Part shown: one piece after another, positions 3,916 through 64,000 of the stretch
Layout of the letters: each line of letters opens with the position of its first letter
Position numbering within the stretch: the stretch's first letter is position 1
DNA from: Podarcis filfolensis
Lineage: Eukaryota
Strand: one strand, 5' to 3'
DNA: 64,000 nt
NCBI GenBank assembly: GCA_964270895.1
Contig: OZ185437.1
The notes under the pieces: generated by a model
Seen by the model: only the letters and a program-made list of their open reading frames with translations
Databases searched by the model: none
Told to the model about the DNA's origin: nothing
Program-made: the position numbers and the translations under genes

Positions 3916-4017
3916 AGTTCTAGTTATTGCTCAGCAAGTGTTCTGCGGATCGACCTTTAAGCAAGTTGTCTTAAAGGTCAAGGCTGCCAATCACTTGCTG
4001 AGCAATAACTAGAAACT
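3916..4017. repeat. ~100-bp fold-back palindrome
   Basis: Perfect 23-bp arms 3918-3940 / 3992-4014 plus an inner 10-bp stem 3952-3961 / 3970-3979. Confidence 0.9.
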
Positions 4018-15746: not shown

Positions 15747-15797
15747 GTAGGTAGGTAGGTAGGTAGGTAGGTAGGTAGGTAGATAGATAGATGATAG
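15747..15797. repeat. (GGTA)n/(GATA)n compound microsatellite, interrupted by an LTR (continues 16429-16440)
   Basis: Directly visible. Confidence 0.9.
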
Positions 15798-16428
15798 TGT
15801 GATGGCCTGGGACTTGGGCTCAGGCTCGGAACCAGAGGAGACTCAGTCTGCACCGGATCCTTTGTCTCAGGCATCATCTGAACCAAGTCTGGGGCCTGAT
15901 CCTGGAGAGTCCCAGTCTGCACAGGTTCCCCTGCAACAAGCACCAGCTGGGCCGAGTCAGGGGCCTGAGCCTGCCCTGGCTCCAGATGCGGGGATTACCT
16001 CCTTACCCTCTGCTGGGCCATCACTTACAGCTGCTCCACTACCGGTTTGGTCAGGGGAGGCTGAGGCAGCCCCTTGGTCTAGTAACCCACCAACGTCTCC
16101 CGATCTGCAGAGACTGAGGTCTGAGAGAAGGAGAGACCTGAGTACTCACAGGAGGATTGCTCACTTTTGGGAAAAACAGGGAGGTGAGTTGCCGGGGGAT
16201 CAGGACCGGCCGCTACCCCGACAAAGATAAAAGGCTGTCGGACCCTGCCCCAGGTTGTGGGAATAACATTGCTGTATGCTAGATCCTGTCTGAGATCCTG
16301 TACCTGACCTTGCCTGGTTTCCTGCCTCGTGTCCTGCCTTGGCCCGGCTGGACTGACTCCCAGCAGAACCTTTGGATTCTGGACCAGTCCTGGACCGTGT
16401 TTCATGGGTTACCCCCGGGCCCAGCACA
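15798..16428 (+). mobile_element. Solo LTR, family A copy 1 (probably Gypsy-type)
   Basis: TG...CA termini (TGTGATGGCCTGG...CAGCACA) and flanking GATAG/GATAG, though the site is a GATA repeat. Homologous to 62112-62687. Confidence 0.85.
15802..16230 (+). CDS. LTR-embedded ORF, 142 aa, acidic/Pro-rich N-part and Arg-rich C-part (hypothetical retrotransposon accessory protein)
   Basis: Open from ATG at LTR nt 5 to TAA in GATAAAA. Homologous in frame to 62116-62478, with a synonymous-biased conserved block. Confidence 0.55.
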   Translation: MAWDLGSGSEPEETQSAPDPLSQASSEPSLGPDPGESQSAQVPLQQAPAGPSQGPEPALAPDAGITSLPSAGPSLTAAPLPVWSGEAEAAPWSSNPPTSPDLQRLRSERRRDLSTHRRIAHFWEKQGGELPGDQDRPLPRQR

Positions 16429-17569
16429 GATAGATAGATAAAACTACCTATCTATCAGTCCCACCCCAGTGATGATCTATTGGCCTGATCTTCTGGAACT
16501 CTTTCAGTCATGAACTTATGTCCAACTGCAGTACTTCCAAGGTAGCTTACAGCTTAGATGGTAGAACTAATGAAGACAAGAGGACAAAACATTTTACAGC
16601 AATGACTTAAATACCCCAGTAAAAAAATGATTCAGGTAGAACTAACTTTATTTACCAGAAATTTATCCTAGCTGGAAGTTCAGAGAGATAGTTTTAAAAA
16701 AAAGTTATTGCAATTGCCATAGCACTGAGCTTTAAATTAAAATGCAAGCTGCACTGGTCATGGGTCTATGCTGTAACTCAAGAGAGACCTGCAAAAGGTC
16801 TGACACTGAGGATGGGCTTGTGGCTTTGGCATACATTCTTTCTAGACATCGTCAACTTGTACCCTATTGCTTCTGTTAGGTCTCTGACCAAACAGAGATC
16901 CCCTTTCATGAGGCACATGTGACTTTTCTTTGACTGTCAGCGCTTACTCAGTGGTTGGGGTACAGGAGGAAATGGATGTGCTGACTGAAGTCAAGATGGT
17001 TTGAAGACCATGCATAACCTGAGCAAATTCAAGGCAAGTGTTTCAGCCGTCTTTAGACTCACAGGCTTGTGATATTACTTTCAGTAGCTATTAATGTGCA
17101 TGGAATTGCTGCTAGGAGCAATGGTAAGGAAGGCTTTTCAGCACCATCTAGTGTAAAGACTGTGACCCTGAATTTGGGTCTGACAATCATGATTCATACT
17201 TTTGTAAACTTGAGAGAACAAGACTAAATTGCAATGTGCTGTGCTCTCAACTGCCTTTGAGGGCTATTCCAAAACTGTGGTTCTGAATAGTAAATAAAAA
17301 TGAAAAAACCCACTGAAATGCTAAGTATTGTTTTTAGTATTGATTGTTGGGTTCCACAAACCCATCACACGAGTGCTTCTGTGACTGTACTGGCTCCCTG
17401 TAATTTTCTCAGTACTATCCAAGAGACGTGTATCGATATATAATCCCTTGCGGTTTATGCCTCAGGTAAGACAGTTTCTTCTCTTATGTCTCACTGTGAT
17501 TTCTAGGGCCAGTTCACACATTATATGGTGGAGTTGTGAAACAACTGCAGGTATTCCTCAATGAGACGG

Positions 17570-38003: not shown

Positions 38004-38138
38004 TCCAGTAGCAAACAAGGTCCCCTCCAGATGTTGTTGGACTACAGCTCCCATCATCCCCAACCGTAGGCCATGCTGGCTGGGGATGATGGGAGTTGGA
38101 GTTCAACATCTGAGCAGCATCCCATTGGCTGCCCTTGC
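38004..38138. mobile_element. Palindromic hAT-like MITE (family also at 48204-48292, 50160-50277, 61424-61545)
   Basis: Internal hairpin GACTACAGCTCCCATCATCCC / GGGATGATGGGAGTTGGAGTT. Confidence 0.7.
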
Positions 38139-47124: not shown

Positions 47125-47663
47125 TGTGGGATGTGATACATAGGTAGCAGTCAAATACAACATTCCTTGTCTTCCTAGAGTGGACATGCAAGGGGATGTT
47201 TGGTCCAGCCAGTCAGAACTTCCTGTTTCCTCCTGGGCTAGGACATACTTCCCCTTGCATGTGACTAGAGGTGGGTGTGGCCTTACCTGTGCAGTCTGCC
47301 AGTCTGCAGTCACTGGGATTAACCCCCCATATGGGGTAGATCCACATGTATACACTTTGTAACTAAGTCTGCCATCTGGGATCCAACTGTGAACAGAATG
47401 TGAGTAAACTACTTTTATATACTTTACACAAGATTGTGGCGTGCTTATTCTTTTAAGAGGGATATAAGGGAACTTACCAGGAACATACAATTCCGTATTG
47501 AATTGCATGATATTGAGAGGCTTATACAAGGCTTACACAAGCCTGAAACCAGCTATCTGCTGTGTGTTTAAAAGGGGAATGTAAAACTCTGCTATATTAT
47601 AGAAAGTTAGGAAGGATATTAATATACAATATATTCTCTCCTGCCTCCCTGAACATTCCCACA
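47125..47663 (+). mobile_element. Solo LTR, family B copy 1
   Basis: TGTGGGA...TCCCACA termini; 5-bp flanks GAGTT/GGGTT; homologous to 56119-57046 and 62718-63361. Confidence 0.8.
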
Positions 47664-56118: not shown

Positions 56119-57046
56119 TGTGGGAATCTTCAGGGTGGCAGGAGAGGATATATTGTTTATTAATATCCTTCCTAACTTGCGCTAGCAAGTTCCTTTACTT
56201 AGCAGAGTGCATTCCCCTCTACACGGCAGAAAACTAGTTGCAAACTCGTGTGAGTTTCTTAAGACAATACGCAATTCCATCTGGCTTTTCCAGATTGAAA
56301 TGTGTTCTAATATTTTCCTGGTAAGACCCCTTGAATCCCTCCGAAAAGAATAAAGACACCACAGTCTTATTCATAAACAATAAAAAGAAAGTTTACTCAC
56401 GATCAGGCAGAGCACAGTGTGATCCCTGAAGGCAGGCTTAAGGCTTAAAGTTACAAGCATATACAAACAGGTTTGCCCCATACAGTGGTACCTCGGGTTA
56501 AGAACTTAATTCGTTCTGGAGGTCTGTTCTTAACCTGAAACTGTTCTTAACCTGAAGCACCACTTTAGCTAATGGGGCCTCCTGCTGCTGCTGCGCCGCA
56601 GGAGCACGATTTCTGCTCTCATCCTGAAGCAGAGTTCTTAACCCGAGGTACTATTTCTTCAGTCTGTAACCTGAAGCGTCTGTAACCTGAAGCGTATGTA
56701 ACCCGAGGTACCACTGCAAGATGAGTGCCGCAACCCCAGAATCAGTCACGACTGGACCTAATGGTCAGGGGTCCCTTTACATTTACCTAGCGACTGCAGT
56801 TAGCAGTCTGGGAAGTTTGCAGGATGAAATGAAGATGGAAAAGAGAGGAGAGAGTGGCAGTATGCCTTGGCCTTTTACCAAGTCTGGAAAGGTCATGCCC
56901 ACCCACTAGTCACATGCAGGGAAGGATGCTCCAGGCCAGGAGGGACAGGAAGTTTTGACTGGCTGGACCAAACATTCCCTTGCATGTCCACTCTAGCAAA
57001 ACAAGGAATGTTGTGTTTGATTGCTCCCAGTGGATTACATCCCACA
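56119..57046 (-). mobile_element. Solo LTR, family B copy 2 (contains a nested MITE)
   Basis: TGTGGGA...TCCCACA termini; flanks ATACT/ATATT; reverse complement of 47125-47663. Confidence 0.8.
56483..56716 (+). mobile_element. Tc1/mariner MITE, copy 2 (nested in the LTR)
   Basis: Same TIRs as 1957-2182; TA on the left, CA on the right. Confidence 0.9.
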
Positions 57047-59462: not shown

Positions 59463-60227
59463 CGTCTTAGCCAGATATCACCACCTGGACCTTTAATTAT
59501 TTGGTTTTATTACCCACAGGCAAAGGGGAAACAAGATGGTGCATGCTCTTCTGATAGTAGCAGTTCAGTTTATGCTGAACTGCTTGTTTTCGTCTAGGGC
59601 AAGAGGTGTGATGGCAAATCCAGTGTGAGACTACTTGGCAATTAACTTGTGGTTCACACATAATAAGGCCTGGTTTAGGGCTTCACCTTGGGATGACACT
59701 GATAATTTGTTGTGTCTAAGGGTTTGTTCTCTGAGCTGTGCAAATGTTCTGACAAATGATTATACGATATGAATTGTTCATTTGGCCCATGAAAGCTTAT
59801 GCCACAATACATTCCTTCCTTTTCATAATATCACAATACTCTTGTTTCCTGCAACAGACTAACACAGTCAATTCTCTAACGTTTGTGTCATGCGTCGTAA
59901 AGACTTAATTTAACTTGATTCCTGTTTTCAAAGGATGAATAAATGGAGTGTATGAACCTTTTGTGGCATGCAGCCATAGTATGTCTCATTTCAGCTAGGA
60001 GATGTACGAACTGGACATCTTGATGTAACCTCCTGTATCCACTGTTTCATGTGCATATTTTTACTTGAAGGTTTCATACTTTTACTAAAGTGAGAAAGAA
60101 GAGCAGCAAAATCCCGGGAAGCCCATTGCTAGGCTACCATTCCAACATTCTGAGACAAGAGACAGAAAGCATGTTCATTCATATGGTACAATTGTGAACA
60201 TTTTTTGCTGTTGATGGCTAAGCAGTA

Positions 60228-60453
60228 CAGTGGTACCTCGGGTTACATACACTTCAGGTTACAGACTCCGCTAACCCAGAAATACTGCTTCAGGTTAAGA
60301 ACTTTGCTTCAGGATGAGAACAGAAATCGTGCTCTGGCGGTGCAGCGGCAGCAGGAGGCCCCATTAGCTAAAGTGGTGCTTCAGGTTAAGAACAGTTTCA
60401 GGTTAAGAACGGAACTCCGGAACAAATTAAGTACTTAACCTGAGGTACCACTG
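60228..60453 (-). mobile_element. Tc1/mariner MITE, copy 3
   Basis: Same TIRs with TA on both sides; internal sequence reversed relative to copy 1. Confidence 0.92.
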
Positions 60454-61545
60454 TATATAAATCCTGTTAGGCGAATCAATTATGGCTGTAATTCTAACCC
60501 CGTACCTGGGAGTAAGCTCCATTGAATTCAGTAGGATTTACTTCTGAGCAGACTTGCTTAGGGTTTCAATTTAATTATTGCAACCTGAATTTTGCCCTCT
60601 TAAAACTGGGCATGGTAGTGATCGGGCTCTTTCCAGTTGAGCCCTCTTTTGAACTGATAATGGATATCTACACACAGCCGTTGTTTCACATCTTGCAAGT
60701 CAAGTGTACTGGCAGATAGAAATTTAATGACTTGAAGATCCAAAATTCATAAACTAGTGGCCTCCTTTTTTAGCATTCCTATTTTAAACTATTCCTTTTA
60801 AGACATGAATATTCCTTAATTGTGGTTTTCCAGGCAGGTTTTAGTTATGTCTATAATTTCACAGGTTTCCTTATGCAGACATGCCTCTAGCTCTTCCATC
60901 ATTCTTGTCTTTGTATTTAGCAATTTAATAACCCTCTGTTTTTAAATACAAGTTCTCTCTCCCTGTACGTAAATCCCAAATATAATCTGTTATTTAGCTC
61001 ATTTCCACTGTAAGTGCATCCTCCCCCTTTATCTAGTCATTAAATATGTATCATTCTACAGGAGTTTTTAATCACCACAGGGATCTATTCCATTTCCATG
61101 TGAATGACTTGTTCTTTTTTCTTCTGTGCATTAAAAGGGTGGAAAACATGCTTTTATGCAGAGAGAGCAGTACATGGTTTAGGGGCTGACTACATCTCAC
61201 CCCACAGTCCCTCTTGAGCATATGCTTCCTTCTTTTCCCATTCCCAACACGCCAGGTCCAAACTGGCTTCCCCTTTCCCCCCAACGTCCTCTTCTGAAGA
61301 AAGCATTGTAATATTTATTCTGATCAACTATCAAAAATGGAGATTTTTTTTATTAAAAAAATGGAATGGTGAGAATGTGATAAAGTTGGACATAGAAAGC
61401 TATGTCCAAGACATGGTGTAAACTAGGGGTAGCCAATGTATGGCCTTCCTGGTGATGAGGACTACAACTCACATCATCCCTGATGTTTGGCCATGCATGT
61501 TGGTCTTAATGGAAGTTGTAGTCCACAAAGTCTGCAAGGCACCAC

Positions 61546-61620: not shown

Positions 61621-62111
61621 ATGGCTCATAATATAGTTGTACTACAAAAGCTAAGCAAGCCCACTGCTTCTGTAAGGTGCCTAGTGTAGTCATACATAAA
61701 TCAGTCTGATGGATGCAAGTCTACTCCTTAGAGGAAGAATTAAGATGATCTAATTTAATTGATGGTTTAATAATGTGTTTTGATGCTTTTGTGGTTTATG
61801 TGAACTGCTTTGGGTAAAGGAGTCAGCATATAGTTAATGTGAATAAATAAAAGAAGTAAGCAAGGGAAGGATGGAAGGAAGACATTCAAGGGAACATAAC
61901 AGACAAGTTCTGTGGGGAAATCTTTAAGGTTCAGTTTAGCCAATTAACCTTACAAGGAGGAAGCTTGAAATGGCCCACTTGTCATGGTCTTCCAGGTTAC
62001 TGCTGTAACATACAGTGATGCACAGTCATCTTTCTGTAGAGGCTGCCCATGCCATTGCTGCCCATTCTTGGCTGTGGTTGGTGCTGGGAGGCCAGTGCTC
62101 CACAAGACATG

Positions 62112-62687
62112 TGTGATGGCCTGGGAATCCAATTCAGAGGCTGAACCGGAGGAATCCCAGCCTGCACAGGAGTCCCCGCCTCCAGGGCCGGCTGAACTGG
62201 GGCAGGGCCTTGATTCTGAAGCGCCTGCACCTGTGCCGGATCCTCAGGAGCAGGCACCAGGTGAATCCACTCTGGCTCCAGAGGTGGTTGAGGACTCAGT
62301 GCCTACAGGTGAGTCCCCCCCCCCTGGGCCCAGTAACCCTTCAGCCTCTCCTGAACTGCAGAGGCTCAGGGCAGAGAGGCGAAGGGAACTGGTTTCTCCC
62401 AGGAGGAGTGCTTGCCTTAAGGCCAGGAGAGGCGGGTCTCCTGGGGGCCGGGACCGCCCCTGGCCTCAGAGAAGATAAAGGCCAGTCAGCCCAGTCCCAG
62501 GTTGCGGGAGCAATGTCGTTGAGTACCTGTTCCTGCCCGGACCCAGACCTGACCCTCCAGTGTTCCTGTCCCCGCCCAGCTTCCTGCTTCAGACCTCGCC
62601 CCGCTCCTTGTGAACTGTTTCCAGGCTAGTGACCCAGGACCGGACTTTGACTACGCCAACGGTAACCTTTCCCCCGGGACCAGCACA
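62112..62687 (+). mobile_element. Solo LTR, family A copy 2
   Basis: TG...CA termini; perfect 5-bp TSD ACATG (62107-62111, 62688-62692). Confidence 0.9.
62116..62478 (+). CDS. LTR-embedded ORF, 120 aa (homolog of 15802-16230)
   Basis: MAWESNSEAEPEESQ...SPELQRLRAERRRELVSPRRSACLKARRGG...DRPWPQRR*; open frame. Confidence 0.55.
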   Translation: MAWESNSEAEPEESQPAQESPPPGPAELGQGLDSEAPAPVPDPQEQAPGESTLAPEVVEDSVPTGESPPPGPSNPSASPELQRLRAERRRELVSPRRSACLKARRGGSPGGRDRPWPQRR

Positions 62688-62717
62688 ACATGGCAGAATG
62701 TGTGGTGATATGAGACA

Positions 62718-62901
62718 TGTGGGATGTGAAACACAAGAGCAGTCAAGTACAACATCCCTAGAGTGGACATAAAAGGGGATGTTTGGACCAGCCAGTCGGA
62801 CCTTCCTGTTTCTCCTAGGCTGGGAAAGACTTCCTCTCTGTATGAGACTAGAGATGGGCATGACCTCACCTGCCCAGGTAACAAAAGAGCAGGACTGGTC
62901 A

Positions 62902-62956
<55 letters not shown>

Positions 62957-63361
62957 GCATTTGTCGAAGAAGCAACATCTGCTTAGCCCAAGATGCTCTC
63001 TTGGCTTCCAGCCAAGAGAGGACAAAGGAGCTATCTCCTTATCGGATAGTTTCCACATGTATATTACTTTTGTAACTTAAGTCTGCCTTCTGGGATCCAT
63101 TTGTGAACAGAATGTGAGTGAGTAAACTCTTTTCATACTTTTATAGAAGACTTACTTGTGTCTATCTTTTTATGAGGGACTAAATGGGGAATTACCAAGG
63201 AAACGTGTTTTAGAGGCTTTAGCGAGCCTGAGCAAACGCATCCGCTGTGAAAGTTTAAAAAGGGGAATGTTACTCCGCTAAATTGTAGAACTTGTTAACA
63301 CAAGTTGGAAAGGATATAATCAAACAATATATCGTCTCCTGCATCCTTGAACATTCCCACA
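62718..63361 (+). mobile_element. Solo LTR, family B copy 3, with an internal (CT)n at 62906-62952
   Basis: TGTGGGA...TCCCACA termini; flanks AGACA/AGGCG (degenerate); shared blocks with the other two copies. Confidence 0.8.
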
Positions 63362-63821
63362 AGGCGTTACACAATAGAAACATGTGGAGAAGCCAATATG
63401 CAGAGGTTGTTTTCTACTTCTCCTGCATGGGAGAAAAACTATGTTATGACCTGCCTTAAAGGTCTGGTTTCACCAGCACTTGGTAGTTCTTTCCCCACAT
63501 AAGTTTTACTAGAAGCAGGAATGCAGGGTTTTATATGTGTGATAGAAATGCGTCTAAAATCCCTACACCACTATTGCTGTGGCTGGCATGGAACCTGAGC
63601 TCTTAACCCAATGATTTCACCAGTGCAAATGGTCATAGAACCAACTCAGGCTGATCATGTTTGAAGGTATGAATAACACCTGAGGGAGAGAAACATCTTC
63701 ATGATAATAAGACAAAGCAAATTCTAAGAACAGATGTCACCAGAGGAACTCCAGCCATCAACATATATGTTAAATGCATTTAAAATGTCAGTGCAGGGTA
63801 CATTATAATGGATACTCGCTA

Positions 63822-64000
63822 CAGTGGTACCTCGGGTTAAGAACTTAATTTGTTCTGGAGGTCCATTCTTAACCTGAAACTGTTCTTAACCTGAGGTACC
63901 ACTTTGGCTAATGGGGCCTCCTGCTGCTGCCGCACCGCCACTGCTGTGAGATTTCTGTTCTCATCCCGAAGCAAAGTTCTTAACCTGAGGTACTATTTCT
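63822..64000 (+). mobile_element. Tc1/mariner MITE, copy 4 (runs off the window end)
   Basis: TA|CAGTGGTACCTCGGGTTAAGAACTTAAT. Confidence 0.9.

Follow-up and report, generated by a model that had tools for sequence, protein, structure and literature searches.

A lizard Ty3/Gypsy chromovirus with an LTR-coded integrase tail that ends in an HMGN-like motif, a candidate nucleosome anchor

The open reading frames in two solo long terminal repeats (LTRs) of the lizard Podarcis filfolensis are the remains of an integrase tail that, in related Podarcis records, ends in RRSARLxA, an octamer matching seven of the eight residues of the HMGN nucleosome-binding core RRSARLSA (position 7 is K or Q). The window, by which we mean the whole stretch of 64,000 nucleotides that was analysed (contig OZ185437.1 of GenBank assembly GCA_964270895.1), holds one LTR from each of two subfamilies, and in these the match to the core is six of eight residues (copy 2) and three of eight (copy 1). 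The features on which the argument draws are the following.

62112..62687, + strand: solo LTR copy 2 of a Ty3/Gypsy chromovirus-type retrotransposon; 576 bp, TG...CA ends, of a subfamily distinct from that of copy 1
62107..62111 (left) and 62688-62692 (right), + strand: 5-bp target-site duplication of copy 2
62113..62478, + strand: open frame of copy 2, the C-terminal tail of the integrase/Pol if read from a 3' LTR; ATG at 62116, stop at 62476-62478
62116..62349, + strand: acidic, proline-rich linker, predicted to be disordered; 78 aa with 16 D/E, no K/R and 18 P
62307..62313, + strand: splice-donor-like AG/GTGAG, the point at which gene models P0003 and P0025 depart from the LTR frame
62350..62388, + strand: Arg-rich predicted helix, kept between the subfamilies with mostly synonymous change
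62401..62424, + strand: HMGN-like octamer site of copy 2; RRSACLKA here, RRSARLKA in relatives
62475..62479, + strand: ATAAA, putatively TATA-like, overlapping the stop codon; this overlap is present in both copies
15798..16428, + strand: solo LTR copy 1, of the second subfamily; 631 bp
15793-15797 and 16429-16433: 5-bp duplication of copy 1, within a GATA microsatellite and hence less telling
15799..16230, + strand: open frame of copy 1; ATG at 15802; 81% identical to the P. muralis model P0027
16150..16173, + strand: motif site of copy 1; RRIAHFWE, unlike the RRSARLQA of P0027 at five of eight positions
16182..16188, + strand: splice-donor-like AG/GTGAG directly past the copy 1 motif, where the RefSeq model P0027 departs from the LTR frame

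Both LTRs start with TGTGATGG and finish with CCAGCACA, and the terminal inverted repeat of copy 2 spans 8 bp with one mismatch. The two align end to end, with 378 of 550 columns identical (68.7%), and nhmmer recovers their homology at E values of 4e-37 and 1.2e-41. A sensitive search of the 64-kb window turned up no copy of the LTR beyond these two, gag and pol matches were absent from it, and a full Gag-Pol used as tblastn query aligned to nothing but the two LTR frames; both elements are therefore solo LTRs. For copy 2, one contig of run X8 represents the empty site, skipping 62107-62687 with five letters that fit on either side, which confirms the ends of the element and its duplication, and a contig of run X1 passes from the left flank into the LTR. 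Across the part of the LTR that bears the frame, contig depth sums to ~60,000 to 1.5 million versus 48-83 in the flank; these figures are not a copy number, and the LTR family is plainly abundant and high-copy in lacertid DNA. The window copies are dead remnants of this Ty3/Gypsy chromovirus family.

Other repeats share the window. A second solo-LTR-like family, with TGTGGGA...TCCCACA ends and degenerate flanking 5-bp duplications, is found at 62718-63361, 47125-47663 and 56119-57046 (-), and one of its copies lies 30 bp from LTR copy 2 and contains a (TC)n run. An element of ~235 bp occurs in four copies that are 87-88% alike (1955-2186, 56480-56716, 60224-60456 and 63820-64000), with inverted ends TACAGTGGTACCTC...GAGGTACCACTGTA and TA flanks, and presumably resembles a non-autonomous element of the Tc1/mariner type. 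Short near-palindromic elements, seen as self-complementary BLAST matches, lie at 263-420, 3918-4014 and 38035-38108.

The identity of the LTR frame emerges from its longer relatives, which are automatic gene models and the sole source for the full-length element. Queried with the copy 2 peptide, the databases yielded Podarcis records only (one near its own length, six longer proteins and seven from a representative library), and adding cluster members brought the number examined to 26. Seven of the 26 (P0003, P0005, P0016, P0021, P0022, P0023 and P0026) continue from a chromodomain, by way of a Gly-rich stretch that we infer to be the translated polypurine tract, into the LTR peptide in one unbroken frame. 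Specifically, P0021 (1559 aa) matches the copy 2 frame at 81% over its last 117 residues (1443-1559) and carries Retrotrans_gag, RVP_2, RVT_1, RT_RNaseH, rve, SH3_Tf2-1 and Chromo domains, with no env family among its 16 hits. The junction records and the P0021 match together identify the frame as the last part of Pol, coded by the 3' LTR; the pol frame of these models passes the polypurine tract and continues for ~120 codons into that LTR. The sequence-only reading had envisaged a stand-alone LTR-encoded factor, and that idea gives way here to a C-terminal run-on of the chromodomain integrase. In each window LTR, the frame opens at LTR base 2 and closes at a TAA that aligns between the copies; for sequence of the LTR's own composition under an order-1 Markov null, the P values for a frame staying open this far are 0.011 (copy 1) and 0.058 (copy 2). 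Pfam placed no families on the LTR frames (0 for each of P0001, P0002 and P0027). An ESM Atlas query with chromodomain plus tail returned only chromodomain clusters, under 0.9, and one with the last 60 residues gave no usable match; a scan of viral_contigs produced 20 pattern matches and 0 confirmed relatives.

As predicted from the intact relatives, the order is chromodomain, acidic disordered linker, Arg-rich helix and RRSARLxA, whereupon the protein ends. In an AlphaFold2 model of P0022 (12-row alignment, mean pLDDT 63), the chromodomain is confident, residues 326-408, the equivalent of the linker, stay under a pLDDT of 50 nearly throughout and are read as disordered, and residues 409-421 form a helix at modest pLDDT, with the motif itself low-confidence. 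The acidic disordered arm that had been hypothesized for the LTR protein thus keeps its acidity and its predicted disorder and loses its independence, being a linker between chromodomain and motif and not a separate arm. The chromodomain matches PF00385 at an E value of 8.5e-16, and its three cage aromatics are present as Y, W and Y, aligned to Y, W and F of HP1. The cage aromatics are defined in PMC3350952, where group I retrotransposon chromodomains, such as that of MAGGY, are described as binding H3K9me2/3.

The motif at the end of this tail is recoverable in full only from the relatives. It had been noted that 62401-62418 reads RRSACL and 16150-16167 reads RRIAHF, and that the codons TGC and CAC at the fifth position are the two deamination products of CGC, so that the ancestor probably had Arg there. 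The codons are as quoted, the sites are homologous, and Arg occupies the disputed codon in all nine of the Podarcis records that span it. RRSARLxA is present in eight of these, x being K in six and Q in two that are isoforms of one locus; the ninth, P0024, reads RRSVR and then goes out of frame. Arginines at positions 1, 2 and 5 are together present in nine of nine spanning records and in neither window copy. The motif is present in both subfamilies although their tails share just 37-42% of residues.

Counts in natural copies agree. Reads and contigs related to the window were aligned at 80% likeness and cover four of the 24 listed runs; in the related DNA, C at 62413 accounts for 503,700 of 553,056 depth units in X1 (62 contigs; 91%) and 786,779 of 817,925 in X8 (92 contigs; 96%), and in RNA reads for 58 of 94 (X23) and 45 of 54 (X21). 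The RNA reads come from dispersed family copies, with 2 of 316 and 0 of 162 at >=99% identity to the window, and reveal neither a start site nor translation. A search of sequencing runs listed no match catalogued as RNA, which has no bearing on expression. Support for Arg comes from such counts in natural copies. Further, TG-versus-CA pairs are found at five columns of the LTR alignment, alongside six CG/TG and five CG/CA pairs; opposite-strand CpG decay is ordinary in this alignment and not special to the motif. Around the motif, 62395-62412 and the relatives place it within S-P-R-R / R-R-S contexts, which we take to resemble CDK and Aurora/PKA sites. In HMGN, binding is proposed in PMC12487698 to drop upon serine phosphorylation in the motif region.

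The earlier identification of RRSARL with the HMGN core is borne out by the relatives, anchor Arg included. HMGN proteins contact the acidic patch via RRSARLSA, with R26 as the anchor (PMC12487698), and the Arg missing from both window copies is the equivalent of R26. By our own count, the motifs of two experimentally tested binders, Dsup RRSSRLTS and Dot5 RRSARIAT, each match RRSARLSA at five of eight positions; yeast Dot5 is reported to bind via RRSARIAT (PMC13347269). The chance of RRSARL arising from the composition of the tail is 1e-4 to 5e-4, a post hoc figure. We found no report of an HMGN-like motif in a retrotransposon integrase in the literature consulted, mostly at the level of titles and abstracts and with few subscription journals.

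The motif is not a general property of chromovirus tails. A metagenome set of 80 loci included 63 with a chromodomain frame (66 rows), and after 34 of the 66 rows were left out as open, duplicate or without an integrase motif, 32 remained; RR[ST]xR occurred in 0 of these 32 complete integrase-chromodomain tails (shuffled expectation 0.15), and we reject the notion that RRSxR is general in such tails. The median tail past the chromodomain in the sampled metagenome chromoviruses was 13.5 aa. Among 17 other Pol proteins, one of which was left out when the pattern missed its chromodomain, RR[ST]xR was found in 2 of 16 tails versus 0 matches in 19,021 body residues. The amphibian record P0028 is without RRSARL, and the databases hold few squamate elements. 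Elsewhere, RRSxR repeats, described with no assigned function, occur in the N-termini of the plant chromomethylase CMT2 (bioRxiv 2024.07.11.603080). Across chromovirus tails, the sequences suggest that a basic second contact may have been added repeatedly.

The same comparison yielded several observations on other elements. AT-hook-like RGRP stands directly behind the chromodomain in L036, L047, L050, P0032 and P0044. An extra module of 60-110 residues, rich in Trp and charge and with a recurring 'TAKLLYGW'-like stretch, lies past the chromodomain in metagenome Gypsy elements (L011, L023, L029, L033, L034, L045, L056, L060 and L069). The Pol of P0030 has a chromodomain, a polypurine-coded Gly stretch, a long acidic tail and a basic end but no RRSARL, and provides a natural comparison for tail function.

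The best reading of such a tail, to which we give an even chance, is that the chromodomain, through H3K9me, and an acidic-patch anchor jointly tether the integrase to nucleosomes. The tail would remain attached to the integrase, the chromodomain with its three cage aromatics would read H3K9me2/3, and RRSARLxA would dock in the H2A-H2B acidic patch through an arginine anchor of the HMGN type. The flexible linker would allow both contacts to retain the integration complex at nucleosomes, mitotic chromatin perhaps included, and the two contacts could raise the efficiency of integration or bias it to heterochromatin; the basic stretch may additionally act in nuclear import. Counting against this reading are the narrow range of the motif and the occurrence of RRSxR in proteins, such as CMT2, that are not known to bind the patch. 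Among viruses, an acidic-patch anchor on foamy virus Gag sets integration sites, and acidic-patch tethering has been suggested for MLV p12 (PMC9040877). Modelling the peptide on H2A-H2B with AlphaFold-Multimer, as had been proposed, would be a weak check because AlphaFold 3 itself returns low-confidence, wrongly oriented models of HMGN2 on the nucleosome (PMC12487698).

The strongest competitor, unlikely in our judgement and nonetheless to be taken seriously, retains the integrase tail and explains its basic end as a nuclear localization signal (NLS) or a non-specific DNA- or RNA-binding patch, with the HMGN match incidental. Consistent with it, 14 of the last 42 residues are K or R, the most conserved part of the tail is the Arg-rich helix and not the octamer alone, and other chromovirus tails have the AT-hook-like RGRP or plain basic ends. 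However, an NLS needs no S, A, L or final A, and these are kept though the linkers are at about 40% identity.

The pattern of substitutions bears on whether the frame was maintained as protein or as DNA. Across 120 codons compared between copies 1 and 2, dN/dS comes to 0.35 (Fisher p 3e-6), a whole-frame value that the protein-guided alignment biases down, while post-insertion decay would push all such values up. An ungapped 28-codon block gives a dN/dS of 0.34 (block p 0.049), the five remaining frames giving 0.58-4.3, and the value for residues 79-94 is 0.145. The LTR frame was formerly under purifying selection, with a dN/dS of about 0.35, on a comparison of two subfamilies that both come from Podarcis-like lizards. 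Among the variant rows listed within the frame, 11 of 21 fall at third positions (p 0.056), a lean that we give no weight because the 21 come from a set with 114 further rows. In the six codons of the hexamer, the third positions are all identical between the window copies (P about 0.02-0.05 versus the neighbouring block), so constraint at the DNA level fits too. It is therefore conceivable, if improbable, that the motif was kept as a promoter or enhancer element of U3, ~60-75 bases upstream of the TATA-like box, with RRSARL as a by-product. Loose-end fragments of more distant copies seem, by eye and unaligned, to share the codons, and contig depth is high throughout 62340-62521. Against this, six codons are a small sample, and the adjoining 22 codons change mainly synonymously, with dN/dS near 0.35 in this frame only.

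A further possibility, which we rate as slight, is that translation from the ATG at LTR base 5 yields a small protein in its own right, with a trans-acting role in anti-silencing or tethering. This ATG is flanked by G at -3 and +4, several gene models begin at it (P0004, P0006, P0007, P0008, P0009, P0024, P0027 and P0045), and RNA reads cross the LTR start into upstream sequence (in X23, with 47 loose ends at 62112). Yet the ATG lies within the terminal inverted repeat and may be kept for integrase recognition, and 75-81% of the RNA reads continue into unlike sequence. The gene models, for their part, join the frame to gag or to host exons at varying points, as automatic annotation would. Further, if the ATAAA is the promoter TATA, the entire frame sits in U3 and precedes the start site of the element itself, and the promoter of a 5' or solo LTR should then be unable to transcribe it; the RNA reads aligned gave no transcription start peak at 62475..62479. 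A neutral read-through tail without function, which short polypurine-tract run-ons in other chromoviruses (L004, L007 and L022) and a GC-rich LTR with few stops might bring to mind, has a negligible claim, since the reading is already largely refuted by the dN/dS of the frame and has to contend with in-frame length differences, a common stop and the far shorter tails found elsewhere.

Some host gene models take up parts of the LTR. The RefSeq models P0027 and P0045 (XP_077791897 and XP_077791896) contain the LTR frame as an exon, one RefSeq model retaining the RRSARLQA tail complete and splicing it to further exons; pieces of the linker occur in a CEP63/Deup1 model and in one for a GPCR (P0025; P0009). 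Exon capture and annotation artefact are both possible origins of these models.

On the features tested (domains, cage and LTR ends), the integrase-tail element appears to belong with the group I chromodomain Gypsy elements. Like the fungal and vertebrate group I chromoviruses of the Ty3/Gypsy type, MAGGY among them, it has their domain order, a C-terminal chromodomain, a TG...CA LTR, a short target-site duplication and no env family; unlike the sampled chromoviruses, it adds a tail of ~120-140 aa, coded in U3, that ends in the HMGN-like octamer. The best solved-structure match is Ty3 Gag-Pol, and we rejected an endogenous retrovirus on the Gypsy-type domains and the lack of an env family on the Gag-Pol model. 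Ty1 integrase carries a long disordered module at its C-terminus (PMC8487063).

The closest parallel for the run-on itself is in plants. In CRM group A, the coding region reaches into the 3' LTR and there holds the targeting CR motif (PMC3059260), much as the lizard frame enters the 3' LTR with a putative targeting motif. In CRM group A, however, the CR motif replaces the chromodomain, whereas the lizard element keeps both a chromodomain and an LTR-coded tail; with a canonical chromodomain present and only the run-on in common, membership of CRM group A was rejected, the two being set apart by descriptions.

The motif invites a different set of comparisons. HMGN is a small stand-alone protein with a basic N-terminus and an acidic C-terminal region, whereas the lizard motif ends a retrotransposon polyprotein and has the acidic part ahead of it. 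No Pfam HMG family is among the hits of P0021 and P0022 at E values up to 10, the whole-protein family of HMGN being, we assume, HMG14_17, and we rejected membership of the HMGN family for a Pol tail with its acidic segment ahead of the motif and no HMG family match. What the lizard relatives share with the HMGN, Dsup and Dot5 motifs is local: seven of eight core residues of HMGN, all three arginines, a disordered context and, in one lizard subfamily, a proline before the motif, as in Dsup PPRRSSRLT. By function, the proposed tail would stand beside foamy virus Gag, MLV p12, KSHV LANA and HCMV IE1, foreign proteins that anchor a genome at the acidic patch. The acidic-patch tethers reviewed in PMC9040877 are retroviral Gag products and herpesvirus proteins, and the foamy virus intasome itself is described there as being without an arginine anchor; unlike these, the lizard candidate anchor is on the integrase.

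The chromatin choice of chromovirus integrases in vertebrates has been little studied. A wider reading, plausible but tentative and on balance somewhat doubtful, is that a vertebrate LTR retrotransposon integrase convergently gained an HMGN-type anchor coded by its 3' LTR and paired it with an H3K9me chromodomain as a two-point tether, and that thousands of solo LTRs have since spread ATG-bearing, splice-donor-flanked copies that lizard host genes could take as exons, as P0027 and P0045 suggest. If binding fails, a more modest result is left, a Gypsy family of lizards with an integrase that extends into the LTR, as in plant CRM. If the proposal is true, an arginine anchor on a retrotransposon integrase, coupled to a methyl-lysine reader, would amount to a new design of integration tether, and the HMGN motif would have a further independent origin, after Dsup and Dot5.
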